DNA from: Escherichia coli
Lineage (GTDB): Bacteria; Pseudomonadota; Gammaproteobacteria; Enterobacterales; Enterobacteriaceae
Direction: 5' to 3' (one strand)
Length of the DNA stretch: 64,000 nucleotides
Assembly: GCF_013315695.1 (NCBI RefSeq)
Contig: NZ_CP054353.1
Both the position numbers and the translations under genes were made by a program. The notes under the pieces were generated by a model, which worked only from the letters and a program-made list of their open reading frames with translations, was not told the DNA's origin and did not search any database. How positions within the stretch are numbered: the stretch's first letter is position 1; each line of letters begins with the position of its first letter. Below are positions 1 to 19,772 of the stretch, piece after piece.

Positions 1-396
1 GTGATCTGGCAGATGCCAGGCTGGTGGATGGGCGCGCCGTGGACAGTGAAAAAATACATTGATGATGTATTCACCGAAGGTCACGGGACGCTGTATGCCA
101 GCGATGGTCGTACCCGCAAAGATCCGTCGAAAAAATACGGCTCCGGCGGCCTGGTACAGGGCAAAAAATATATGCTTTCTCTGACCTGGAACGCACCAAT
201 GGAAGCCTTCACCGAAAAAGATCAGTTCTTCCACGGCGTTGGTGTTGACGGTGTGTACCTGCCGTTCCATAAAGCAAACCAATTCCTTGGCATGGAACCG
301 CTGCCGACATTTATCGCTAATGACGTGATAAAAATGCCTGATGTTCCCCGCTATACTGAAGAATATCGCAAGCATCTTGTGGAAATTTTTGGTTAA
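1..396 (+). CDS. mdaB: NAD(P)H:quinone oxidoreductase MdaB, C-terminal 131 aa; 5' end lies outside the window
   Basis: ORF track frame open from base 1; translation recognised as MdaB C-terminus. Confidence 0.9.
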   Translation: MIWQMPGWWMGAPWTVKKYIDDVFTEGHGTLYASDGRTRKDPSKKYGSGGLVQGKKYMLSLTWNAPMEAFTEKDQFFHGVGVDGVYLPFHKANQFLGMEPLPTFIANDVIKMPDVPRYTEEYRKHLVEIFG

Positions 397-426
397 CTAG
401 AGCTCTGGCTTTAGAAGGAGTTAACC

Positions 427-741
427 ATGATTACAGTAATCGCAGAAATCCGTACTCGTCCTGGTCAACATCACCGTCAGGCAGTGTTGGATCAGTTTGC
501 TAAAATCGTTCCAACCGTACTGAAAGAAGAAGGTTGCCACGGCTATGCGCCAATGGTGGATTGCGCTGCTGGCGTGAGTTTCCAGTCTATGGCACCGGAT
601 TCTATCGTGATGATTGAGCAGTGGGAAAGCATCGCGCATCTTGAAGCGCATCTGCAAACCCCGCACATGAAAGCATATAGCGAAGCCGTAAAAGGTGACG
701 TGCTGGAGATGAATATTCGTATCCTGCAGCCGGGGCTTTGA
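427..741 (+). CDS. ygiN: quinol monooxygenase YgiN (ABM domain)
   Basis: 104 aa ORF, sequence recognised; GGAG-type RBS upstream. Confidence 0.9.
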   Translation: MITVIAEIRTRPGQHHRQAVLDQFAKIVPTVLKEEGCHGYAPMVDCAAGVSFQSMAPDSIVMIEQWESIAHLEAHLQTPHMKAYSEAVKGDVLEMNIRILQPGL

Positions 742-746
742 CATTT

Positions 747-780
747 CTAAAAAGAGGCCGGTGCTGCTACCGGTCTCAGC
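747..780 (-). terminator. rho-independent terminator at the end of the minus-strand transporter operon
   Basis: GC stem gagaccggt/accggcctc followed by a T-run on the minus strand, directly 3' of the regulator stop at 786. Confidence 0.5.
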
Positions 781-785
781 CCAGA

Positions 786-1673
786 TTAGCCATTCTTTCT
801 TCCCGTTTTCAGTCCTCGATGGAAATCGTTAATTCGCTTAATGGTTTTAACCGCACGCTGCGGCACTGCGGAAGCTACCGACCAGACAATCATTTCCAGA
901 CACAACAATACCGTACCATGTAGCGGCGTTTTCCCTTTTTCATCCCCGCGCGGAACATGAATCACGATACTGGCGTCTTTGCTAAAACGTGAATCCAGCG
1001 CGTTTGTCAGCAAAATAACAGGGATCCCCAGCCGCCTCGCCTCACGAAGCGTTGTCAGCCCTTCCCGGTGCGCAGATTTTTGCGCCATCATGATCAGAAC
1101 ATCGCCACGTTGAAGCGCGATCAGTTGCTCGGCAAGGCCAATACCCGTACGGTTTAGTGCCGTGGCAGGCAAACCTATGCGGTTGAATAGTCGTGCGGTA
1201 TAGTCCGCCAGGATACCCGAAGCGCCAATGCCAAAAATAGCGACTTGCCGTGCCTGCACCAACAACGCTACAGCTTGCGCAAGCGCGTGGCGGTTTTCAG
1301 GCTCTGACAGGACATTACAGGTATACAAATGCCCTTCAAGAACAAAGTCGATTGCGGTGTTAACATCGCTCGTCAAGTTACTCACCGTCGTAGACATCTT
1401 TTCGCTGGAACTAAGGGCTGGACCAAGCCACTGTTCCAGAGTGCGTTTCAGATCACGCAGCCCGGCAAACCCCAGGGCCTGTATAGCCCTGATAACAGTG
1501 GCATCGGAAGTGTTCAACGTGGCCGCAATTTCCATCGCCGTTTGCTCGAGTACCACTTCACGATGCTCATTAATGTAGCTGGCGACAGCTCTTAACCCAG
1601 GCGTTAACTGACTCGCGCGAGTGCGAAAACGCTCACCAAAAATATCAACCCGCGCTTTATCTTTCTGGATCAT
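786..1673 (-). CDS. RpiR/MurR-family transcriptional regulator (N-terminal HTH, C-terminal SIS sugar-phosphate-binding domain)
   Basis: 295 aa ORF; HTH region followed by SIS-like glycine-rich motif (VAIFGIGASG); start overlaps upstream gene stop by 4 nt. Confidence 0.8.
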   Translation of the reverse strand: MIQKDKARVDIFGERFRTRASQLTPGLRAVASYINEHREVVLEQTAMEIAATLNTSDATVIRAIQALGFAGLRDLKRTLEQWLGPALSSSEKMSTTVSNLTSDVNTAIDFVLEGHLYTCNVLSEPENRHALAQAVALLVQARQVAIFGIGASGILADYTARLFNRIGLPATALNRTGIGLAEQLIALQRGDVLIMMAQKSAHREGLTTLREARRLGIPVILLTNALDSRFSKDASIVIHVPRGDEKGKTPLHGTVLLCLEMIVWSVASAVPQRAVKTIKRINDFHRGLKTGRKNG

Positions 1674-2617
1674 TTAGCCTCCGGTAGAGGTCGCCCTGCA
1701 ATTTGTGATTGTATCTGCGCAGCCATCAGCCCCAGTGATGCAAAGGAGTTAGAAATTGCCTCTTCACGAGAAATCAGCACATAACGCCCGGAACGACAGG
1801 CAGTCAGAAACTGACACCATCCCGGCATGACTTTTTCCATTGCTGCCAGCTCATCCTGAGGTTTACCACCGGTGTCACCGCGCCAGGTTGCAAAAACAAA
1901 ATCGGCATCCAGTTCAGGTAAACGCTCCGCGCTCACATCCATTCGCCCACCTTCAGGAATGCTCTCAATCAGCGGCGGAAAACGAAAACCAGCATCGCGT
2001 AATACCCGCCCCAGCGAATGATAGCTATGCATCACATTAATTTTTCCCTGGTTTGCCTGAATCACCGATACCGTTATTTTTTGGCTGTCCAGCGTCGCCT
2101 TCAGCGCATTGATTTGTGCCTGATAGCGGCGTTCAAGTATCGCCAGCTGCGACTGCGTTCCTGTAAGTTCTGCCAGCTTGCGATAGATTTCTGGCGCGCC
2201 CCCTTTGAGATGATCAATGCTCACCGTGGGCGCAATTTTTTCAAGTTGTTCAATGGGCGTATTACGGGTCGGTTCTGTGATGATCAAGTCAGGCTTTGCC
2301 GCCACAATCGCTTCAATATCAATATCAGCGGTACCAATAAAGGCGATCGATGAATTATCAAAGTCGACACCTGTCAATAACGCGCCAGATCGAATGAAAT
2401 GGCTACCGTCAGGCCGAGTTCGCCCGTGGCTGGCGACAGGAGGTACACCGAGCTCAATCAGAGGAATAGTGATATCAAGATCGTGTAAAGAGACAATTCT
2501 CTTTGGATGAGCAGGAACAGTGACTTTGCGCCCTAAATCATCAGTAAATACCTGAACAGGTTCTGTTGCACGGGAAAAAAATGACAACAGTATCAGCAGA
2601 GAAAAAAATAAACGCAT
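1670..2617 (-). CDS. periplasmic substrate-binding protein of a siderophore/heme/B12-type (FecB-like) ABC importer
   Basis: ORF 1670..2680; start placed at internal Met preceding a signal peptide (MRLFFSLLILLSFFSRA). Confidence 0.75.
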   Translation of the reverse strand: MRLFFSLLILLSFFSRATEPVQVFTDDLGRKVTVPAHPKRIVSLHDLDITIPLIELGVPPVASHGRTRPDGSHFIRSGALLTGVDFDNSSIAFIGTADIDIEAIVAAKPDLIITEPTRNTPIEQLEKIAPTVSIDHLKGGAPEIYRKLAELTGTQSQLAILERRYQAQINALKATLDSQKITVSVIQANQGKINVMHSYHSLGRVLRDAGFRFPPLIESIPEGGRMDVSAERLPELDADFVFATWRGDTGGKPQDELAAMEKVMPGWCQFLTACRSGRYVLISREEAISNSFASLGLMAAQIQSQIAGRPLPEAK

Positions 2618-2627
2618 ATAACTCCCG

Positions 2628-3677
2628 TTAAAAACTGTTCCTGCGCTGCCAGAGCAGTAGCAAAAAAAATGGTCCACCAATCAGTGAGATAATGATTCCG
2701 GCAGGCAGTTGCAAAGGCAAAAAAGCCAAACGACCAATGCTATCCGCCAGAATAACTAACAACGCCCCCGATACCGCACTCCCCAGCAGTAATGTCGTCT
2801 GCCCGCCACGTAGAATAAAACGTGATATATGGGGTGCTATCAATCCGACAAAACCGATGTTACCAACACACGAAACGCAGACGGCTGTCAGGATTATGGG
2901 TGCGGCGACACGTAACAACGCCAGACGAGAACTATTCACCCCTAACCCGGTTGCAACCTGATGACCAAGCAGAGCGATATCCGCCGTCCTGGCGGTGAAC
3001 AGCAATAAAAGAGCGGCTGGCAACATCCAACAGGCTGAAATACCGACTAACATCCAGTTAGCTGCATGCAGGCTTCCCGATAACCACATCAATGCAGTTT
3101 GTACATCTCGAACATCTGCAGTGGTCATAAATACACCGATACCGGCGGCGAAAAACCAAGAAACACCAATACCAATCAGAACAAATCGCGGGCGGGAAAT
3201 ATCGCGCGCACAAAAAATCACGATTAAAGCCACCAACAGGCCACCAGCAAGACCAGCCACTGGACGCCAGAACACTCCCAGCATTGGAAACTGGAAAATC
3301 AGCCACAGCACAGCCACGCTACATCCTTCTTTGACGCCGATTAACCCAGGATCGGCAAGGCCGTTACGTGCAATGGATTGCATTGCGGCCCCTGCCATAC
3401 CTAACATGGCCCCGCATAGCAATGCCATGATGACTCTCGGCAAGCGAATATCCTGCACAATATAACGTGCGTCTGTGCTTACGTTTTCTGGAGCAAACAA
3501 CGCTCGTCCTACTTCCGATGCCGGAACAGAGAAAGAACCCTGCATCAGACCGAATATCAGTATTCCAACCGCAAACAGAAACAGCCCACCAAGCAACAGC
3601 AGATTTTTAGGGCGTACCAGTGTCGAAAACTTACCAACACGTAGTGGGCGTAGCCCGACGTTCATTATCCGACTCAT
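2628..3677 (-). CDS. ABC importer permease, FecCD family
   Basis: 349 aa polytopic membrane ORF with FecCD-like sequence. Confidence 0.8.
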   Translation of the reverse strand: MSRIMNVGLRPLRVGKFSTLVRPKNLLLLGGLFLFAVGILIFGLMQGSFSVPASEVGRALFAPENVSTDARYIVQDIRLPRVIMALLCGAMLGMAGAAMQSIARNGLADPGLIGVKEGCSVAVLWLIFQFPMLGVFWRPVAGLAGGLLVALIVIFCARDISRPRFVLIGIGVSWFFAAGIGVFMTTADVRDVQTALMWLSGSLHAANWMLVGISACWMLPAALLLLFTARTADIALLGHQVATGLGVNSSRLALLRVAAPIILTAVCVSCVGNIGFVGLIAPHISRFILRGGQTTLLLGSAVSGALLVILADSIGRLAFLPLQLPAGIIISLIGGPFFLLLLWQRRNSF

Positions 3678-4657
3678 TTGAACATCCTCGTCGCCATAAT
3701 GACAAAAACAGGCGCACCAACTAACGCCGTCATGACACCGGTCGCTAATTCATGGGGCGTGAAAAGCGTACGGGCAATAATATCTGCCAGTAATAACAAA
3801 AGTGCGCCGACACAAGCTGAAAGAGGGAGCAGAACGCGCAGATCCGCTGATACCAGGCGCCGGACAATCTGCGGTACTAGCAGGCCGACAAAACCAATGG
3901 GGCCAGCAATCGATACGGCTGCGCCACAGAGCAACGCGATCGCAAGCAGGGTGAATGTTCGCGTGCGGAGTACAGAGACGCCCAGCCCCTGCGCCATGCG
4001 ATCGCCCAGTGCCAACATGTTAAGGGAGGGTGCAAGGTAAAGGGCTAACACAAATCCCCCCAGAGAAAACCAGGCGGACGTACCCAGCGTCGCCCAATCC
4101 TGCCCCGCTAAATCACCTGCTAGCCATGTCCGCATCGCCAGCAGTGTTTGTTCGTCAAGAATCAGGATTGCAGCCGTTATTGAGGACACGAACGCCGATA
4201 GCGCCACGCCGCATAAAGTAACTTTCATTGGCGTTAACCCTGAACGCCCTGCGGAGGAAAGCAGCAATATCAACAGGAACAATAACGCGCCGCCCGTAGA
4301 TGCCAGCAGTGGGCGTCCAACCGGAAAGGCCAGCCCAAGCGCACTGGCAGCAACGACAGCAAGAGCGGCTCCGGCATTTAAGCCTAAAATATGTGGCTCC
4401 CCCAATGGGTTACGAATGACAGCCTGCAACAAAGCACCAGCAACTCCAAGAGAAGCACCGGTAAGCAATGCTGCCGCTAAACGCGGCAAACGGAGTCTTA
4501 CAATTACGTTGTGATCGAAGTTTTGCGGTTCAAAATGAAGAAATGCCTGCAATACCGTTTGTGGTGCAATAAATCGGGCACCAATCCCTGGATATACCAC
4601 GCATCCCACCAGCAGTAAGGCGAGGAAAATTACAGTAACCAGCCCTGTGCGCATCAT
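3674..4657 (-). CDS. ABC importer permease, FecCD family
   Basis: 327 aa polytopic membrane ORF; 4-nt overlaps with both neighbours. Confidence 0.8.
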   Translation of the reverse strand: MMRTGLVTVIFLALLLVGCVVYPGIGARFIAPQTVLQAFLHFEPQNFDHNVIVRLRLPRLAAALLTGASLGVAGALLQAVIRNPLGEPHILGLNAGAALAVVAASALGLAFPVGRPLLASTGGALLFLLILLLSSAGRSGLTPMKVTLCGVALSAFVSSITAAILILDEQTLLAMRTWLAGDLAGQDWATLGTSAWFSLGGFVLALYLAPSLNMLALGDRMAQGLGVSVLRTRTFTLLAIALLCGAAVSIAGPIGFVGLLVPQIVRRLVSADLRVLLPLSACVGALLLLLADIIARTLFTPHELATGVMTALVGAPVFVIMATRMFK

Positions 4658-5463
4658 ACTTTTTCTACACCACGAAACGGCATGAAGAACGGCTTTCCCG
4701 TCAGAGGATTTATTGATGCGTGAACATCAACGTCAAAGACAGCTTTTACCAGCTCAGGCGTGCAATGCTCCCCCTCATTCAACACACGCACCACTTTCCC
4801 CTGGCGTAAAAATATCAACGTATCGCCATAATTGACGGCAAAATTCAGATCATGCAACACCACGACGACTGTACGCCCGTGATGACGTGTTAAATCATGT
4901 AATAACTCAAGAATTTCAACCTGATAACGTAAATCAAGCCAGGTTGTGGGTTCATCCAGCAGGATATAAGGCGTCTTTTGCGCCAACACCATCGCAATCC
5001 AGCAACGCTGACGCTGCCCGCCAGAGAGTTTTTCAACAGGTAAATGTGCAAACTCCTGCGTACCCGTTAATTTCAGGGCCTCTTCTACCGCCAGCTCATC
5101 GGCGTCGCTCCATTGACGAATGAAATTCTGCCAGGGAAAACGCCCACGCGACACCAGTTCATAAACGGTTAAGCCCTCCGGCAATAATGGCGACTGCGGC
5201 AAGATCCCAAGTCTACGGGATAACGCTTTCGTTGGTTGCTCGTGAATCGCTTTGCCATCAAGCAATATCGAACCGCCCATGGGTTGCAAGATACGTGCAA
5301 TGGTGCTGAGCAACGTCGACTTTCCACAGCCGTTTGCCCCAACCAGAACGGTCATTTTTTCTGTGGGAACGGAGAAAGAAACACCATCAACAATGATCTT
5401 CTTGTGATACCCGGCAGAAACATTGTCGAGGATCAGCCCCTGCCCTTTTGCGTTATGTGCCAC
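4654..5463 (-). CDS. ABC importer ATP-binding protein (FecE-like)
   Basis: Walker A GANGCGKST, ABC signature LSGGQRQR, Walker B ILLDEPT. Confidence 0.85.
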   Translation of the reverse strand: MAHNAKGQGLILDNVSAGYHKKIIVDGVSFSVPTEKMTVLVGANGCGKSTLLSTIARILQPMGGSILLDGKAIHEQPTKALSRRLGILPQSPLLPEGLTVYELVSRGRFPWQNFIRQWSDADELAVEEALKLTGTQEFAHLPVEKLSGGQRQRCWIAMVLAQKTPYILLDEPTTWLDLRYQVEILELLHDLTRHHGRTVVVVLHDLNFAVNYGDTLIFLRQGKVVRVLNEGEHCTPELVKAVFDVDVHASINPLTGKPFFMPFRGVEKV

Positions 5464-5469
5464 GTGTAC

Positions 5470-5836
5470 GCCAACTTAATCAAAGACAAACAAAAATAAA
5501 ACTCATTCTCCTTTGAGAGTTTGACGCCACAAAATGTAGTAGTCAAGCAGTTAAAAGCCACACAAAAACAAGGTAAATAACAGGTAAAATATTTTTGCAC
5601 ATAAAAATAAAAACATTAAATATCAATAATTTAAAAGCAATCAAATTGTATAAACTTTTCATAAAAACACATGTAGCAATTTTTTGTTATTTCTCATTTA
5701 CTACTACATTACTGCGTGATTGAATGATTCTCAATTACATATCCGATGGCGAAATAACAAACGGATAGTGCTTAGTGAGCAATAAGAAACAATTTTCACT
5801 CGCGACAATCCGCGAGTTTTTGGGATAACAGACTAA
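5470..5836. promoter_or_regulatory. AT-rich divergent promoter region between the ABC operon and the receptor gene; weak Fur-box-like motif near 5717-5738
   Basis: about 370 bp of AT-rich sequence between divergent starts; tgattgaatgattctcaattac resembles the Fur consensus only partially. Confidence 0.3.
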
Positions 5837-7978
5837 ATGGCTATGTTCACACCTTCATTCTCAGGACTCAAAGGTCGGGCGCTCTTTTCACTGCTTTTTG
5901 CGGCACCGATGATTCATGCAACAGACTCTGTAACGACCAAAGATGGCGAAACAATCACTGTTACAGCAGATGCAAATACCGCAACTGAGGCAACCGATGG
6001 TTATCAACCTCTGAGCACCTCTACGGCGACATTAACCGATATGCCGATGCTGGATATCCCGCAGGTGGTCAATACGGTTAGCGATCAGGTTCTGGAAAAC
6101 CAGAATGCGACAACGCTGGATGAGGCGCTTTATAACGTCAGTAACGTGGTACAGACCAATACATTAGGCGGGACTCAGGATGCTTTTGTACGCCGTGGGT
6201 TTGGCGCAAACCGGGATGGCTCCATCATGACCAACGGCCTGCGAACTGTACTTCCTCGCAGTTTCAACGCCGCCACAGAACGTGTGGAAGTGCTAAAAGG
6301 TCCGGCCTCCACGCTGTATGGCATTCTCGATCCTGGTGGATTGATTAACGTCGTGACCAAGCGCCCGGAAAAAACATTCCATGGTTCTGTCTCAGCCACG
6401 TCCTCCAGTTTTGGCGGAGGCACTGGGCAACTTGATATCACAGGTCCCATTGAAGGCACTCAGCTGGCATACCGCCTGACGGGGGAAGTGCAGGATGAAG
6501 ATTACTGGCGAAACTTCGGTAAAGAGCGCAGTACATTTATTGCCCCGTCACTCACCTGGTTTGGTGATAATGCAACAGTAACCATGCTCTATTCCCATCG
6601 GGACTATAAAACTCCGTTCGATCGTGGAACGATTTTCGACCTTACGACGAAACAGCCCGTAAACGTTGATCGAAAAATACGTTTTGACGAACCGTTTAAT
6701 ATTACAGATGGTCAGTCCGATCTGGCGCAACTCAACGCAGAATATCATCTCAATAGCCAGTGGACAGCGCGCTTTGATTACAGCTACAGCCAGGATAAAT
6801 ACAGCGACAATCAGGCTCGCGTTACCGCGTATGATGCAACGACAGGAACGCTGACACGGCGTGTTGATGCAACTCAGGGATCTACCCAGCGTATGCATTC
6901 TACTCGTGCGGATCTGCAAGGGAATGCTGATATTGCTGGGTTCTATAATGAGATTCTGGGTGGGGTGTCATATGAATATTATGATCTTCTGCGCACAGAT
7001 ATGATTCGCTGTAAAAACGCTAAAGATTTCAATATCTACAACCCCGTTTATGGCAATACCAGCAAATGCACAACGGTTTCGGCGTCGGACAGTGATCAGA
7101 CGATCAAACAGGAGAGCTACTCAGCGTATGCACAGGACGCGCTCTATCTGACCGATAACTGGATTGCCGTCGCCGGGATCCGCTATCAGTATTACACGCA
7201 GTATGCGGGTAAAGGCCGTCCTTTTAATGTCAATACTGACAGCCGCGATGAACAATGGACGCCCAAACTGGGGTTAGTCTACAAACTGACGCCATCGGTA
7301 TCCTTATTTGCCAATTATTCGCAAACATTTATGCCGCAGTCGTCAATTGCCAGCTACATTGGCGATCTTCCACCGGAATCATCTAATGCTTACGAAGTCG
7401 GGGCAAAATTCGAGCTATTCGATGGTATCACCGCAGATATTGCGCTGTTTGATATCCATAAACGTAACGTGTTGTATACCGAAAGTATTGGTGATGAAAC
7501 CATTGCCAAAACGGCAGGCCGTGTTCGTTCAAGAGGGGTAGAAGTCGACCTTGCGGGAGCATTAACTGAAAACATTAATATCATTGCCAGCTACGGCTAT
7601 ACCGATGCTAAGGTTCTGGAGGATCCTGATTATGCAGGGAAACCATTGCCGAATGTTCCTCGTCATACCGGTTCGCTATTCCTGACTTATGACATTCATA
7701 ACATGCCTGGCAATAACACACTGACGTTTGGCGGTGGTGGACATGGCGTAAGCCGTCGTTCGGCAACCAATGGGGCTGACTATTATCTGCCAGGCTATTT
7801 CGTTGCCGATGCCTTCGCTGCATACAAAATGAAATTGCAGTATCCGGTCACACTGCAATTAAACGTCAAAAACCTGTTTGATAAAACGTATTACACCTCT
7901 TCCATCGCCACAAATAATCTGGGGAATCAGATTGGCGATCCGCGTGAAGTGCAATTCACGGTGAAAATGGAATTTTGA
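5837..7978 (+). CDS. TonB-dependent outer-membrane receptor
   Basis: 713 aa; signal peptide, TonB-box-like ETITVTA, plug and barrel motifs, C-terminal Phe. Confidence 0.85.
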   Translation: MAMFTPSFSGLKGRALFSLLFAAPMIHATDSVTTKDGETITVTADANTATEATDGYQPLSTSTATLTDMPMLDIPQVVNTVSDQVLENQNATTLDEALYNVSNVVQTNTLGGTQDAFVRRGFGANRDGSIMTNGLRTVLPRSFNAATERVEVLKGPASTLYGILDPGGLINVVTKRPEKTFHGSVSATSSSFGGGTGQLDITGPIEGTQLAYRLTGEVQDEDYWRNFGKERSTFIAPSLTWFGDNATVTMLYSHRDYKTPFDRGTIFDLTTKQPVNVDRKIRFDEPFNITDGQSDLAQLNAEYHLNSQWTARFDYSYSQDKYSDNQARVTAYDATTGTLTRRVDATQGSTQRMHSTRADLQGNADIAGFYNEILGGVSYEYYDLLRTDMIRCKNAKDFNIYNPVYGNTSKCTTVSASDSDQTIKQESYSAYAQDALYLTDNWIAVAGIRYQYYTQYAGKGRPFNVNTDSRDEQWTPKLGLVYKLTPSVSLFANYSQTFMPQSSIASYIGDLPPESSNAYEVGAKFELFDGITADIALFDIHKRNVLYTESIGDETIAKTAGRVRSRGVEVDLAGALTENINIIASYGYTDAKVLEDPDYAGKPLPNVPRHTGSLFLTYDIHNMPGNNTLTFGGGGHGVSRRSATNGADYYLPGYFVADAFAAYKMKLQYPVTLQLNVKNLFDKTYYTSSIATNNLGNQIGDPREVQFTVKMEF

Positions 7979-7980
7979 TC

Positions 7981-8022
7981 AAAAAAGCCCGGTATACACT
8001 TGTATACCGGGCTATTTTTTAT
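7981..8022. terminator. bidirectional rho-independent terminator shared by the receptor gene and parE
   Basis: stem agcccggtataca/tataccgggct flanked by A-run and T-run. Confidence 0.6.
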
Positions 8023-8041
8023 TCTTCTGGCGGGAGGATTA

Positions 8042-9937
<1,896 letters not shown>

Positions 9938-9962
9938 TTAAGTTAGCAATTCGAGTTGATCG

Positions 9963-10544
9963 TCAGAGATGGTGCAGACCAAGAAAATCGACGATCGGGT
10001 TGAAATAATCTTCGAAGCCCGTGAATGCGTGGTTGCCGCCTTCTATGACAGTCTGGCGGCAGGAAGCGTAGTACGCCACCGCCTGGCGGTAATCCAGCAC
10101 TTCATCTCCCGTCTGTTGCAGCAGCCAGATCAAATCCGGCGCTTCCAGCGGGTCAATCTGCATGACTTTGAGATCGTAAATATGGCGTGACTCTAGCACA
10201 TATTGCTGCCCGGTGTAGGGGTTCTCGTTCTGACCGAGATAGTCCGTCAGCAGTTCAAACGGGCGCACCGCCGGGTTGACCACCACTGCGGGCAGCATAA
10301 AACATTGCGACAACCAGGTGGCGTAATATCCCCCCAGTGACGAACCGACAATACCCAGCGAATCGCCGCCATGTTCCAGGACAATGGATTCCAGCAGTTC
10401 TGCCGCGTCAGAAGGATACGGCGGCAACTGCGGAATGATCATCTCTACGTCAGGGTGATGTTCCGCCAACCAGTTTTTTAACAAGCTCGCTTTTGCAGAG
10501 CGCGGCGAGCTGTTGAAACCGTGTAAATAAAGAAGCGTAGACAT
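9963..10544 (-). CDS. yqiA: esterase YqiA
   Basis: 193 aa ORF, sequence recognised. Confidence 0.85.
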
Positions 10545-11371
10545 CAGTAGCCTTCTGAAGCGGTATCAGGTTGGAAACGTGTGTCCGCCAGGCGATGCAC
10601 CTCGGTGGTCAGCGTGCCATCAGCATGTAACTCGAGAGTACGCCAGCCGGGCGCGATGGTGTCCAGCGTAAAGTTAGAACAGTGCGGCTTAAACTGCACA
10701 CAGGTCGACGGCGTTGCCAGCAGGCGGCGACCGTTCCAGTCGAGATCCAGCTCCTGATGAATATGACCGCACAGCAAGTATTTGACGTGCGGAAACTTCG
10801 CCAGCACGGTATCCAGTTCGCCCGCGTTACGCAGGCTGTGTTGATCAAGCCAACTACAACCCGCAGGTAGCGGATGATGATGCAGCAGCAGCAACGTATG
10901 GCGTTCTGGCGCATCGGCCAGTTTACGTTCCAGCCACTCAAGCTGAAACTCGCTCAGCTCACCGTGCGGCACGCCAAACACCTGGCTATCCAGCAACAGG
11001 ATTTGCCATTGCTCACCAATAAACACCCGCTTCGCCGGGGAGATACCCGCATCCTGTAACGCGCTGTACATCGCGGGCTGGAAATCGTGGTTGCCCGGCA
11101 GCCAGACGCAGGGCGCACGAAAACTTGCGATGCCTTCAGCGAAATGCTGATAGGCCGCAGAGGATTGATCCTGCGCTAAATCACCTGTCGCGACAATCAG
11201 GTCGAATTCGTGCTGGTGTGGCCGAATCGCCTCCAGCACCGCCTGGTAGCTTTCCCAGGTGTTTACCCCTAACAGGGCTTCGTGCTTTTGCGCAAACAGG
11301 TGAGTGTCGGTAATTTGTAAAATCCTGACTCTGGCCTCACCAGCCAGAGGAAGGGTTAACAGGCTTTCCAA
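10544..11371 (-). CDS. cpdA: 3',5'-cAMP phosphodiesterase
   Basis: 275 aa metallophosphoesterase (GDLAQD, GNHD motifs). Confidence 0.9.
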
Positions 11372-11395
11372 ATGGTGTCCTTAGGTTTCACGACG

Positions 11396-11818
11396 CTAAT
11401 AAACCGGAATCGCCATCGCTCCATGTGCTAAACAGTATCGCAACCAGTCCGCTAAAAACTGATTAATTTGATGCTTTTCGTCGCGTTGATGCAACTTTTT
11501 ATTAGGATAATCATACCGCGCTTTGAAGCGAAAAATCTGCTGGCTTGAACACACTTCAGCCACCATCGCGTCATGATACAGACGCACCGTCATTGACGGA
11601 AGGCTCCAGTAACTGATCGCGGGCGCAGTCTGTTCTATTGTCACCAGGGTAGTGTATCGGGTCGATTCCACAATCGTCAGCCGATATTGTGCGTTTGCCA
11701 CCTGATAGCTTACAGTTTCGCCGGGTGCGTCATTGCGCGGTAACAAACGGCGCAATTGTGAAAAGTTCATCTCGCACAGGCGCATCATTTCAGGAAAGTC
11801 AGGTGTGTAACGCTTCAT
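11396..11818 (-). CDS. yqiB: DUF1249 protein YqiB
   Basis: 140 aa ORF in conserved position. Confidence 0.8.
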
Positions 11819-12448
11819 TTATGCCCACTCATTTTTTAACGCTTGATGATGCAGCTGCAGCCATTGCAAAGCGATGACCGACGCTGCGTTGTCGATTTTC
11901 CCCTCTTCTACCCACTGGTATGCCTGTTCCCGGCTTACCACATGAACGCGAATATCTTCGTTTTCATCAGCCAGACCGTGAATACCGCTTGCGGTCGTGG
12001 CGTCCACTTCGCCCACCATAATTGACGAACGCTCACTGGTGCCCCCCGGGCTTGCCAGGAAACTTAACACCGGTTTGGTCCGTTTGACTATCAGCCCCGC
12101 CTCTTCAATCGCTTCGCGACGGGCAACATCTTCCACACTTTCCCCCTCTTCAATCATCCCGGCAACCATCTCCAGTAGCCAGGGGGTTTCGCTAGTGTCG
12201 TACGCGGCAATTCGAATCTGCTCAATCAGCACAACTTCATCACGCACTGGGTCAAAGGGTAGCAAGACTGCGGCGTGACCGCGCTCAAAAATTTCCCGCC
12301 GTACCTCATGACTCATTTGCCCGTTGAATAGACGATGACGAAATCTATAAAGATCTAATGAAAAAAAGCCGCGATAAAGTGTTTCTCGTGCAATAATTTC
12401 TACATCGTTTTTGCCAAATGTAACGGGCAGGTTGTCTGGCTTAAGCAT
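11819..12448 (-). CDS. nudF: ADP-ribose pyrophosphatase (Nudix)
   Basis: 209 aa; Nudix box around [22 protein letters not shown]. Confidence 0.9.
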
Positions 12449-16603: not shown

Positions 16604-18400
16604 ATGTTTGATAAATATAGAAAAACACTCGTAGCCGGAACTGTGGCGATAACCCTGGGTTTGTCAGCATCGGGGGTGATGGCTGCGGGTTTTAAACCAG
16701 CGCCGCCTGCCGGGCAACTGGGTGCGGTCATTGTCGATCCCTACGGCAATGCACCACTGACCGCTTTGGTTAACTTAGATAGCCATGTTATTTCTGACGT
16801 CAAAGTTACCGTCCATGGGAAGGGCGAAAAAGGCGTAGAAATCAGCTATCCCGTGGGTCAGGAATCACTAAAAACTTACGATGGTGTACCGATTTTTGGT
16901 CTTTATCAGAAATTTGCTAACAAAGTGACCGTTGAGTGGAAAGAAAACGGCAAGGTCATGAAAGATGATTATGTGGTGCACACTTCGGCCATCGTCAACA
17001 ATTACATGGATAACCGCTCCATCTCCGACCTACAGCAAACCAAAGTCGTTAAAGTCGCGCCAGGTTTTGAAGATCGCCTCTATCTGGTTAATACCCACAC
17101 CTTTACCGCCCAAGGTTCCGATCTCCACTGGCATGGTGAGAAAGATAAAAATGCCGGTATCCTTGATGCGGGTCCGGCAACTGGCGCACTCCCTTTTGAT
17201 ATCGCGCCCTTTACTTTCATCGTCGATACCGAAGGTGAATACCGCTGGTGGCTGGATCAAGACACTTTCTACGATGGTCGTGACCGCGATATCAACAAGC
17301 GTGGTTATCTGATGGGTATCCGCGAAACGCCACGCGGCACCTTTACCGCTGTACAAGGTCAGCACTGGTACGAGTTCGACATGATGGGGCAGGTGCTCGA
17401 AGATCACAAACTACCGCGCGGATTTGCTGACGCTACTCATGAATCCATTGAGACGCCAAATGGCACAGTATTGTTGCGCGTAGGTAAGAGCAATTACCGT
17501 CGCGATGACGGCGTACACGTCACCACCATTCGTGACCATATCCTCGAAGTCGATAAATCTGGTCGCGTTGTAGATGTATGGGATCTGACGAAGATCCTCG
17601 ATCCGAAACGCGATGCACTGCTCGGCGCGCTGGATGCAGGTGCAGTTTGCGTTAACGTTGACCTTGCCCATGCAGGACAACAGGCAAAACTGGAACCAGA
17701 TACACCGTTCGGCGACGCTCTGGGTGTAGGGCCAGGCCGTAACTGGGCGCACGTTAATTCCATCGCTTATGACGCAAAAGATGACTCAATTATTCTCTCT
17801 TCTCGTCACCAGGGTGTTGTGAAGATTGGTCGTGATAAGCAAGTGAAATGGATCCTTGCACCCTCTAAAGGTTGGGAAAAACCGCTGGCCAGCAAGCTGC
17901 TGAAACCGGTTGATGCTAACGGTAAGCCAATTACCTGTAACGAAAATGGCCTGTGCGAAAACTCAGACTTCGACTTTACCTACACCCAGCATACCGCCTG
18001 GATTTCCAGCAAAGGAACGCTCACCATTTTTGATAATGGCGATGGTCGTCATCTGGAACAACCTGCCTTACCAACCATGAAATATTCCCGCTTTGTGGAA
18101 TATAAGATTGATGAGAAGAAAGGCACCGTTCAGCAAGTGTGGGAATACGGTAAAGAACGTGGCTACGATTTCTATAGCCCAATCACCTCCATCATTGAAT
18201 ATCAAGCCGACCGTAACACCATGTTTGGCTTCGGTGGTTCTATTCATTTGTTCGATGTCGGGCAGCCAACCGTCGGTAAGTTGAACGAAATCGATTACAA
18301 AACCAAAGAAGTGAAAGTGGAAATCGACGTGCTGTCAGATAAACCCAATCAGACTCACTATCGTGCATTGTTAGTCCGTCCACAACAGATGTTCAAATAA
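16604..18400 (+). CDS. assT: periplasmic arylsulfate sulfotransferase
   Basis: 598 aa, signal peptide, sequence recognised as ASST as described in uropathogenic E. coli. Confidence 0.8.
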   Translation: MFDKYRKTLVAGTVAITLGLSASGVMAAGFKPAPPAGQLGAVIVDPYGNAPLTALVNLDSHVISDVKVTVHGKGEKGVEISYPVGQESLKTYDGVPIFGLYQKFANKVTVEWKENGKVMKDDYVVHTSAIVNNYMDNRSISDLQQTKVVKVAPGFEDRLYLVNTHTFTAQGSDLHWHGEKDKNAGILDAGPATGALPFDIAPFTFIVDTEGEYRWWLDQDTFYDGRDRDINKRGYLMGIRETPRGTFTAVQGQHWYEFDMMGQVLEDHKLPRGFADATHESIETPNGTVLLRVGKSNYRRDDGVHVTTIRDHILEVDKSGRVVDVWDLTKILDPKRDALLGALDAGAVCVNVDLAHAGQQAKLEPDTPFGDALGVGPGRNWAHVNSIAYDAKDDSIILSSRHQGVVKIGRDKQVKWILAPSKGWEKPLASKLLKPVDANGKPITCNENGLCENSDFDFTYTQHTAWISSKGTLTIFDNGDGRHLEQPALPTMKYSRFVEYKIDEKKGTVQQVWEYGKERGYDFYSPITSIIEYQADRNTMFGFGGSIHLFDVGQPTVGKLNEIDYKTKEVKVEIDVLSDKPNQTHYRALLVRPQQMFK

Positions 18401-18417
18401 TTAAGAAGGGAATAAAA

Positions 18418-19086
18418 ATGTCGAAATTAGGGATCTCATCACTATTTAAAAGCATACTGCTTACTGCAGCTTTGGCTGTTTCATTTACCGCCTCTGCATT
18501 TACCGAAGGCACGGATTACATGGTTCTGGAAAAACCTATTCCGAATGCAGACAAAACGCTGATTAAGGTATTCAGCTACGCCTGCCCGTTCTGTTACAAG
18601 TACGACAAAGCGGTTACCGGTCCGGTATCGGAAAAAGTGAAAGATATCGTTGCTTTCACGCCGTTCCATCTGGAAACCAAAGGTGAATACGGCAAACAAG
18701 CAAGCGAAGTCTTTGCGGTCTTGATCAATAAAGATAAAGCAGCAGGCATTTCCTTATTTGATGCTAACTCTCAGTTTAAGAAAGCCAAGTTTGCCTACTA
18801 CGTGGCTTATCACGACAAAAAAGAACGCTGGTCTGACGGTAAAGATCCGGCTGCTTTTATCAAAACCGGTCTGGATGCCGCAGGTATGAGTCAGGCGGAT
18901 TTTGAAGCGGCACTGAAAGAACCAGCGGTTCAAGAAACACTGGAAAAATGGAAAGCCTCTTATGATGTCGCCAAAATCCAGGGGGTTCCAGCCTATGTCG
19001 TTAATGGTAAGTACTTGATCTACACCAAGAGCATCAAATCCATCGACGCGATGGCAGACCTTATCCGTGAGTTAGCAAGCAAATAA
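18418..19086 (+). CDS. dsbL: periplasmic thiol:disulfide oxidoreductase DsbL (DsbA paralogue)
   Basis: 222 aa, signal peptide, CPFC active-site motif. Confidence 0.8.
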
Positions 19087-19100
19087 CAGGGAAACAGGCT

Positions 19101-19772
19101 ATGGGTATTAAGGGAATGTGGAAAGATCTTCGCACATCACCAGTTGACACACTGGTCAGATGGCAGGAGCAACGCTTGTTGTGGTTGTTAATGGCCGTTG
19201 CGATGGGCGCGTTAATTATCCTGGCGCACTCTTTCTTCCAGATCTATCTCTACATGGCACCCTGTGAGCAATGTGTATACATTCGCTACGCCATGTTTGT
19301 GATGGTTATTGGAGGATTGGTTGCAGCGATCAACCCAAAGAACATCATCCTAAAGCTAATTGGCTGCGTGATGGCATTTTACGGCAGCATTTTGGGACTG
19401 AAGTTTTCGCTCAAACTGAACGATATCCACCATGCAGTACATAATCCGGATCCCGATTCACTGTTTGGCGTACAGGGTTGCTCTACCGATCCAACTTTTC
19501 CCTTTAACCTGCCGCTGGCACAGTGGGCACCAAATTGGTTCAAGCCTACCGGGGATTGTGGCTATGACGCACCAATCGTTCCTGATGGCGTCACACTGAG
19601 CAGCACGCAACAGTGGTTTGTGGAAATGTATCAGCAATCTGAAGGCTGGTATCTGCTACCACCATGGCATTTTATGAATATGGCTCAGGCTTGTATGCTG
19701 GCTTTTGGTATGTGTCTGGTGCTGCTGGTCATTATGAGTGGCGCATGGGCGCTTAAAATCATCAGAGGCTAA
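19101..19772 (+). CDS. dsbI: membrane disulfide oxidoreductase DsbI (DsbB paralogue)
   Basis: 223 aa polytopic protein with CxxC (CEQC) and a second Cys pair. Confidence 0.8.

Follow-up and report, generated by a model that had tools for sequence, protein, structure and literature searches.

What does Escherichia coli take up through the six-gene cluster that lies between ygiN and parE, and how did this cluster come to occupy a junction that is nearly empty in K-12? We address these questions for a stretch of 64,000 nucleotides from E. coli (contig NZ_CP054353.1 of RefSeq assembly GCF_013315695.1; hereinafter the window), in which positions 786-7978 hold fitA on the plus strand and a divergent minus-strand operon, fitB-fitC-fitD-fitE-fitR. 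We conclude, with a probability of roughly 85%, that this region is the Fit system of E. coli, a TonB-dependent ferric-chelate importer repressed by both Fur and FitR. An earlier note, made from the sequence alone, had described here a cluster for a TonB-dependent receptor and a type II ATP-binding cassette (ABC) importer, and had likened it to the Fit system of extraintestinal E. coli. Six intact genes are indeed found between ygiN (427-741, plus strand) and parE (8042-9934, minus strand), which are neighbors in K-12, as confirmed in BW25113, and that identification is verified by published primers and by a match to the FitE structure.

All 17 primers published for strain i484 (fitA-E, fitR and the fit promoter; Table 2 of PMC2593036) map to the window with zero or one mismatch, each in the expected gene and orientation. 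Residues 19-315 of FitE are identical at 295 of 297 positions to the chains of PDB entries 3BE5 and 3BE6, the second of which is labelled Ec-FitE in a later paper (PMC10553834). Ouyang and Isaacson (2008; PMC2593036), who listed the primers, assigned fitA to the receptor, fitB to the ATPase, fitC and fitD to the permeases and fitE to the binding protein, in addition to fitR, and the order of ATPase, permease, permease, binding protein and regulator in the window agrees with these assignments. A 2026 genome comparison delimited a 7193-bp "fit operon" region in strain BEN2908, common to extraintestinal pathogenic (ExPEC) and adherent-invasive (AIEC) E. coli strains; as this is the exact length of 786-7978, it also counts for the identity of the region as Fit. 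E. coli AF3, a blood-culture isolate from the UK (NZ_OZ547117.1), matches the window at 100% identity, and RefSeq annotates the same six genes in it. The system, first described in the septicaemic isolate i484, has been known since 2006/2008 and has one component with a crystal structure, and the copy in the window is an ordinary allele; what we add, namely operator candidates, cross-genus synteny and accessory genes, is incremental and leaves the classification unchanged.

The 4-nt overlaps that the earlier note had read along the minus-strand operon stand at fitB/fitC (4654-4657) and fitE/fitR (1670-1673). The one between fitC and fitD exists only if translation of fitD starts at the ATG at 3677; RefSeq places this start at 3665. 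The gap between fitD and fitE is 10 nt, and the mechanically called open reading frame (ORF) of fitE extends to 2680.

With two FecCD permeases, an ABC ATPase and a Peripla_BP_2 protein encoded in one operon, the cluster has the composition of a type II ABC importer with a cluster A binding protein. FitA passes the threshold of the siderophore-receptor subfamily TIGR01783 (371.7 bits against a cut-off of 223.5), and its translation displays a TonB box, ETITVTA, at residues 38-44; the representative of its sequence cluster (99% identical) contains only the Pfam Plug and barrel domains (PF07715 and PF00593), with no N-terminal signalling domain. Among the importer components, the best NCBIfam matches are FecE-like for FitB (282 bits against a cut-off of 375), FecC-like for FitC (E 1.7e-70, under the cut-off) and FhuB/FecD-like for FitD (E 1e-55 to 1e-57, all under equivalog cut-offs). 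The Enterobacter orthologues, which are 72-89% identical, carry two copies of PF01032, along with PF00005 and PF01497. As for the last gene, which the earlier note had called simply a regulator, its description can be refined to a MurR/RpiR-family autorepressor that acts alongside Fur. Orthologues of FitR contain PF01418 and PF01380, i.e. an N-terminal HTH_6 domain and a C-terminal SIS domain; the MurR/RpiR-type NCBIfam matches of FitR itself fall under their cut-offs, and its nearest solved structures in a PDB sequence search are MurR/RpiR regulators, aligned over the full length at E 4e-15. The SIS domain keeps the GIGASG motif, and its second motif reads AQKSAHRE versus SQSGRSKD in the HexR-like structure.

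FitR and Fur repress transcription in both directions, and FitR binds a fragment of the intergenic promoter region, in which its sites were unmapped according to the authors (PMC2593036). We aligned this region across 15 genera or species and found four blocks that are invariant, or nearly so, against a mean column identity of 46%. The second and third blocks form an inverted pair, each reading TT(G/T)ACTACTACA in the transcription direction of its own gene and hence overlapping a -35-like hexamer; a further block, TTGAATGATTCTCAATTACA at 5720-5741, is nearly invariant among the 15 aligned sequences. The pattern TGTAGTAGTMAA, which describes the paired elements, is matched twice in the 64-kb window, where 0.14 matches would be expected; all 42 fit loci (42/42) contain exactly two copies, convergently arranged, with no further match elsewhere in them. 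From start to start, the two copies of TGTAGTAGT are 161-163 bp apart in the Escherichia/Enterobacter group and 183-185 bp apart in loci of the Citrobacter/Kosakonia/Kluyvera/Erwinia type, a difference of about two helical turns that suggests conserved phasing. Based on conservation and position, we propose this invariant, convergent pair of TGTAGTAGT elements at the -35 regions as candidate FitR operators, and suggest that their phasing matters. The features of the locus are collected in Table 1.

Table 1. Genes, terminators and candidate regulatory sites of the fit locus, in window coordinates
Feature	Coordinates	Strand	Basis and details
Hairpin, terminator-like, 3' of fitR, between fitR and ygiN	747..780	-	Stem 773-758, CCGGTAGCAGCACCGG then CCTCTTTTTA; absent from the K-12 junction
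fitR, MurR/RpiR-family (HTH_6 + SIS) autorepressor, 295 aa	786..1673	-	ORF, RefSeq name; primers fitR1 and fitR2 and the fitR quantitative PCR (qPCR) pair map here
fitE, periplasmic binding protein (Peripla_BP_2, cluster A), 315 aa with signal peptide	1670..2617	-	PDB match; fitE qPCR primers
fitD, FecCD-family permease, 345 aa (349 aa with alternative start 3677)	2628..3665	-	ORF, RefSeq, fitD primers
fitC, FecCD-family permease, 327 aa	3674..4657	-	ORF, RefSeq, fitC primers
fitB, ABC ATPase, 269 aa, GTG start	4654..5463	-	ORF, RefSeq, fitB primers
Divergent fitB/fitA promoter region, AT-rich, GC about 0.37	5464..5836	.	Composition; fit-promoter primers at 5457-5480 and 5794-5815
Fur-box-like site, fitB side	5492..5510	.	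13/19 versus GATAATGATAATCATTATC; inside a block nearly invariant over the 15 genera/species
Invariant element TGTAGTAGTCAA (block TGTAGTAGTCAAG, 5535-5547); candidate FitR operator	5535..5546	+	Complement holds TTGACT, a -35-like hexamer for fitB
Second copy, TGTAGTAGTAAA on minus, TTTACTACTACA on plus (block CATTTACTACTACAT, 5695-5710); candidate FitR operator	5697..5708	-	Overlaps TTTACT, -35-like for fitA
Fur-box-like site, fitA side, TTGAATGATTCTCAATTAC	5720..5738	.	12/19 versus the Fur consensus
fitA, TonB-dependent outer-membrane receptor, 713 aa	5837..7978	+	TIGR01783, TonB box, fitA primers
Bidirectional terminator hairpin between fitA and parE	7981..8018	.	12-pair stem 7986-8013, T runs flanking on both strands

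What the genes encode, that FitR and Fur act as repressors and that FitR binds the promoter fragment are documented here or in the cited papers; the transport steps that follow are proposed by analogy with the protein families concerned. Under iron limitation, Fur would leave two conserved boxes, one for each of the divergent promoters (fitA and fitBCDER), and FitR, encoded by the last gene of the operon, would add a second, iron-independent layer of repression. FitR might do so by occupying the two TGTAGTAGT elements overlapping the -35 hexamers and perhaps drawing the intervening DNA, roughly 160 bp, into a loop; a cytoplasmic effector lodged in its SIS domain would release it. Once expressed, FitA would take an exogenous ferric chelate from the cell surface into the periplasm with energy from TonB-ExbBD, received via its TonB box; FitE would then catch the chelate by a Venus-flytrap motion, and the FitC/FitD heterodimer, type II and akin to BtuCD/FhuB, would import it together with a dimer of the FitB ATPase. 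As the E. coli cluster contains no reductase or esterase gene, the release of iron would have to be left to general ferric-chelate reductases. Elsewhere in the window, nfeF (yqjH), which is annotated as an NADPH-dependent ferric-chelate reductase and is a possible iron-release enzyme for Fit-imported chelates, stands next to nfeR (yqjI), and their intergenic region (48296-48320) has the strongest Fur-box-like matches in that part of the window (14/19 and 13/19).

Certain points weigh against this reading of the locus and its regulation. Transport by Fit itself rests on homology and on second-hand statements. The TGTAGTAGT motif could belong to the promoter itself or be bound by a different factor, and the Fur-box matches reach only 12-13 of 19 positions in a region that is AT-rich. 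Moreover, the SIS domain of FitR is unusual for a siderophore system, and the cargo or the inducer may be no classical siderophore.

Turning to the origin of the locus, the window and K-12 are homologous up to the ygiN stop codon (741) and again from the parE stop codon (8042) when their junctions are aligned, such that 7300 bp (742-8041) stand in place of a K-12 spacer of 47 bp, with nothing duplicated. As the earlier note had stated, hairpin terminators are present at both ends and the usual signs of mobility are missing: none of the hallmarks of an integrase-mediated genomic island is seen, as there is no tRNA gene in window positions 1-12000, no flanking direct repeat around fit and no integrase-like ORF, the ygiN-parE interval holding only the six genes; a search for structured RNA gave no Rfam match. 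Remnants at the junction were considered as a clue to the polarity of the difference from K-12; the hairpin of the K-12 junction and that between fitA and parE have only a GCCCGG/CCGGGC stem in common, which is too generic, and this line of evidence was rejected.

Among 5426 complete E. coli genomes, 1870 (34%) carry the 7.3-kb segment, always with coverage of at least 80% and identity of 95-100%, and the carriers include Nissle 1917 and O157:H7. The cluster is hence accessory rather than universal, in line with what the earlier note had supposed. The fit-negative genomes listed all show the 2747-bp span from mdaB to yqiA found in K-12, and this uniformity of the empty span indicates two clean alleles at the junction. 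One of the 1873 places that match the segment is in a record typed as a plasmid. In a scan across genera, with one genome per species, we recovered the complete unit, with all six genes intact, in at least 12 genera. The identity of FitA to the window copy is 98% in Escherichia sp. MOD1-EC7003, 87-90% in Enterobacter, Lelliottia, Silvania and Huaxiibacter, 81-83% in Citrobacter and Kosakonia, 77-79% in Kluyvera and Yokenella, and 71-75% in Erwinia, Pantoea and Affinibrenneria. Members of the Enterobacter group have the unit immediately beside parE, and several of them have mdaB-ygiN at its opposite end, which is the site seen in E. coli; some Enterobacter species have 3.6-6.8 kb of extra DNA between fitA and parE. 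Outside the Escherichia/Enterobacter group the unit is found at other sites, and across about 40 fit loci from the 12 genera there is no conserved neighbor beyond the six genes. In Citrobacter and Kosakonia, fit adjoins a gene for the ferrioxamine receptor FoxA (1403 bits against a cut-off of 1300) and one for an AraC-type regulator, forming a small iron-uptake neighborhood.

These distributions bear on whether fit is a recently acquired horizontal cassette, or islet, in a ygiN-parE junction of pathogenic E. coli that was ancestrally empty. Its presence in only about a third of the complete genomes and the clean swap for the 47-bp spacer are compatible with such an event, and so is the GC content at third codon positions (GC3) of the fit genes in E. 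coli (0.44-0.53), which is lower than that of most flanking genes (0.49-0.64). A neighbor-joining tree of the six proteins further places Escherichia as sister to the Enterobacter clade with parE-adjacent fit, leaving Kosakonia and Citrobacter outside, and a grouping of Escherichia with Enterobacter to the exclusion of Citrobacter is not the species tree. We nevertheless judge recent acquisition to be improbable, given the lack of an integrase, tRNA gene or repeat and the degree of divergence: copies from separate E. coli lineages are 1-2.5% apart, much as their flanks are, and relative to MOD1-EC7003, a cryptic lineage with fit at the same site, synonymous divergence (dS) is 0.18-0.37 in the fit genes, within the 0.06-0.53 of the flanks, which fits residence before E. 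coli diversified. The identical length of the empty junction in all sampled fit-negative genomes is, moreover, consistent with one spreading loss allele. Hence, when the earlier note regarded the cluster as an old inserted cassette, "inserted" holds relative to K-12 and an old acquisition is possible; within Escherichia the segment is as diverged as its flanks. We favor the view that fit is an old resident of Escherichia that was probably lost in some, K-12-like, lineages, loss being at least as likely as gain in view of this divergence and of the cryptic lineage with fit at the same site.

Between Escherichia and Enterobacter the history appears to be more complex. Identity at 4-fold degenerate sites between E. 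coli and Enterobacter is 32-43% in the fit genes, which is nearly saturated, versus 47-68% in the flanking genes, and GC3 of the fit genes rises to 0.67-0.77 in Enterobacter. Simple vertical co-inheritance of fit with its flanks was set aside in view of this gap and of the large GC3 difference; the discordance could reflect an old transfer via the conserved flanks, or unusually fast change at silent sites. The genes are under purifying selection, with ratios of nonsynonymous to synonymous divergence of 0.02-0.12 where dS could be estimated.

A variant of the locus is seen among plant-associated relatives. In Erwinia sp. JUb26, three genes are placed between fitE and fitR (positions 2600-5666 of that locus, L032), coding for a PepSY_TM membrane protein and two PstS-like proteins of the PBP_like_2 family, the latter two lacking an obvious signal peptide. 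Pantoea coffeiphila and Affinibrenneria salicis have a fitE-fitR gap of similar size, about 3 kb, gap size being what was compared in these two. The extra genes may encode accessory parts of the pathway. The PepSY_TM family presumably includes the siderophore reductase FoxB.

As regards the cargo, the earlier note had called the ligand unknown, and the literature agrees: the substrate of Fit was stated in 2018 to be unknown and not enterobactin (PMC5907654), no functional data had been found for FitA by 2022 (PMC9409007), and no paper in the literature we searched names a ligand. The comparison of the receptor and binding protein with characterized systems, which that note had suggested, likewise yielded no close relative of known ligand. 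FitA reaches no NCBIfam equivalog cut-off among FhuA, FoxA, FhuE, Fiu, FauA, FecA, FepA, CirA, IreA, BtuB and PqqU, the best scores against cut-off being 229 versus 803 bits for FhuA, 164 versus 1300 for FoxA and 159 versus 666 for FhuE, and it scores at most 170 bits against solved receptors in a PDB sequence search. The solved proteins nearest to FitE, after FitE itself, are YfiY, Bacillus subtilis FhuD and SirA, at E 1e-16 to 2e-8. Known-ligand relatives sought through PDB (with FitA, FitE and FitR) and NCBIfam were set aside, as nothing close emerged besides FitE itself. Biosynthesis genes were absent beside fit in the about 40 loci surveyed, and homologues of FitE at 41-63% identity, covered by six look-ups, are in uptake-only surroundings or on contigs too short to judge. 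The distant homologues stand in uptake-only loci with SIP or FhuF-like reductases, and a 63%-identical homologue is followed by a gene for an HTH_6 + SIS protein. Because no biosynthesis genes are linked to fit, we infer that Fit most likely takes up a xenosiderophore supplied by other organisms, with a hydroxamate and an anionic carboxylate or citrate-hydroxamate about equally likely.

The first of these would make Fit a second hydroxamate system, for fungal or bacterial siderophores of the ferrichrome, ferrioxamine or coprogen type, partly redundant with FhuA/FhuE-FhuBCD. This tentative proposal draws on the top known-ligand models for FitA, which are FhuA, the ferrioxamine receptors (164-194 bits) and FhuE, on the presence of solved FoxA and FhuA among its top structural relatives, and on the placement of YfiY and B. 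subtilis FhuD next to FitE; all the same, the receptor scores lie three- to eight-fold under the equivalog cut-offs, and the similarity is therefore at the level of the superfamily. The juxtaposition of fit and foxA in Citrobacter and Kosakonia is compatible with a shared ligand class, and yet a neighboring foxA equally argues for a different ligand. The FhuF-like reductase adjoining one distant FitE homologue, and the PepSY_TM protein of the Erwinia variant, the presumed family of FoxB, also lean toward hydroxamates. The 2006 paper on Fit reportedly observed ferrichrome-dependent growth promotion with cloned fit. The pocket of FitE, on the other hand, is said in the paper on its structure to be lined with arginines and suited to an anionic ligand, whereas trihydroxamates are neutral. 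The statement that the substrate is unknown (PMC5907654) stands against a hydroxamate as well.

That reported pocket leads to the second class, which we hold to be no less tentative, of anionic carboxylate or citrate-hydroxamate chelates (schizokinen-, rhizoferrin-, achromobactin- or staphyloferrin-like) or of another acidic chelate from plants or the microbiota. YfiY, the closest solved relative of FitE (E 1e-16), and SirA, also among the top relatives, are proteins that we take to bind schizokinen and staphyloferrin B, respectively; these similarities are weak. Ecology points in the same direction, in that fit is common among Enterobacterales associated with plants and soil (Kosakonia, Erwinia, Pantoea, Lelliottia and Enterobacter); nevertheless, a synthetase for carboxylate siderophores is linked to fit in none of the loci. 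The SIS fold of FitR normally binds anionic phosphosugars, and the Erwinia/Pantoea/Affinibrenneria variant includes, as seen in Erwinia, two proteins of the phosphate-binding PstS fold; against this, the second SIS motif of FitR departs from the canonical phosphate-binding sequence.

The regulator also raises the question of a cargo other than iron, such as another metal chelate, a corrinoid, haem or a sugar-derived nutrient, since its family normally controls sugar metabolism and TonB-dependent receptors of this kind also carry pyrroloquinoline quinone (PQQ) and B12. We consider this very unlikely: expression of fit is controlled by Fur and iron (PMC2593036), FitA passes the siderophore-receptor cut-off with haem and B12 models scoring far lower, and FitE has no match to haem- or B12-binding proteins at E<=1e-3. 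At the speculative end, one might imagine that Fit imports an unusual anionic iron chelate, possibly bearing a sugar or phosphate and derived from the host, plants or the microbiota; that FitR senses this chelate or a breakdown product via its SIS domain; that oligomers of FitR bridge the two phased TGTAGTAGT operators, DNA looping shutting both promoters; and that the PstS-like and PepSY_TM genes are accessory parts of the pathway. Such a combination of suppositions is improbable as a whole.

Other features of the window are of note around the locus. In K-12, qseC and mdaB flank ygiZ (DUF2645); in the window strain these two genes are separated by a spacer of only 110 bp, just upstream of position 1, and the absence of ygiZ is a second presence/absence difference from K-12 near the fit site. 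Between ygiC and ygiD (16604-19772) are assT, coding for an arylsulfate sulfotransferase, a dsbA/dsbL-like gene and dsbI, a cluster that we take to be accessory, ExPEC-associated and absent from K-12. On the 3' side of the ebg operon (59154-59851), an IS1A-family transposase gene with a programmed frameshift is followed by a truncated hypothetical gene.

According to the papers that name it, Fit came to light in an in-vivo expression screen with a septicaemia model, and it serves as a marker of AIEC and ExPEC strains. It is present in about a third of sequenced E. coli, encompassing ExPEC/AIEC strains of group B2, the probiotic Nissle 1917 and O157:H7, and any judgement of how much it adds to iron piracy in gut, blood or urine hinges on the identity of the substrate. 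The conserved six-gene unit, the candidate FitR operator and the accessory genes of plant-associated relatives make the ligand question easier to test.

Comparison with known systems sets the locus in context. The published E. coli Fit has the same number, order and orientation of genes, the same primers and the same segment length, and the window differs from it only in allelic detail (zero to one mismatch per primer and 2 of 297 FitE residues). FhuA/FhuE-FhuBCD of K-12 resembles Fit in combining a TonB-dependent receptor, a cluster A binding protein and a type II ABC importer under Fur control; FhuA is among the best known-ligand models for FitA, but at 229 against 803 bits FitA is no orthologue, and Fit has two separate permeases in place of the fused FhuB, and a cytoplasmic repressor of its own. 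FecABCDE resembles Fit in having its FecCD permeases as two separate proteins and in adding a regulator of its own to control by Fur, and FecE and FecC provide the best models for FitB and FitC; in contrast, FitA lacks the N-terminal signalling domain, the FecI/FecR sigma/anti-sigma pair is replaced by a MurR/RpiR repressor, and FitE scores only 37 bits against the FecB model. Finally, the MurR/RpiR regulators HexR, MurR, AlsR and NanR share with FitR the two-domain architecture and the encoding of a repressor together with its regulon. Whereas the known members of this family respond to phosphosugars and regulate carbohydrate metabolism, FitR acts on an iron importer and has a second SIS motif that differs from the HexR-like one.

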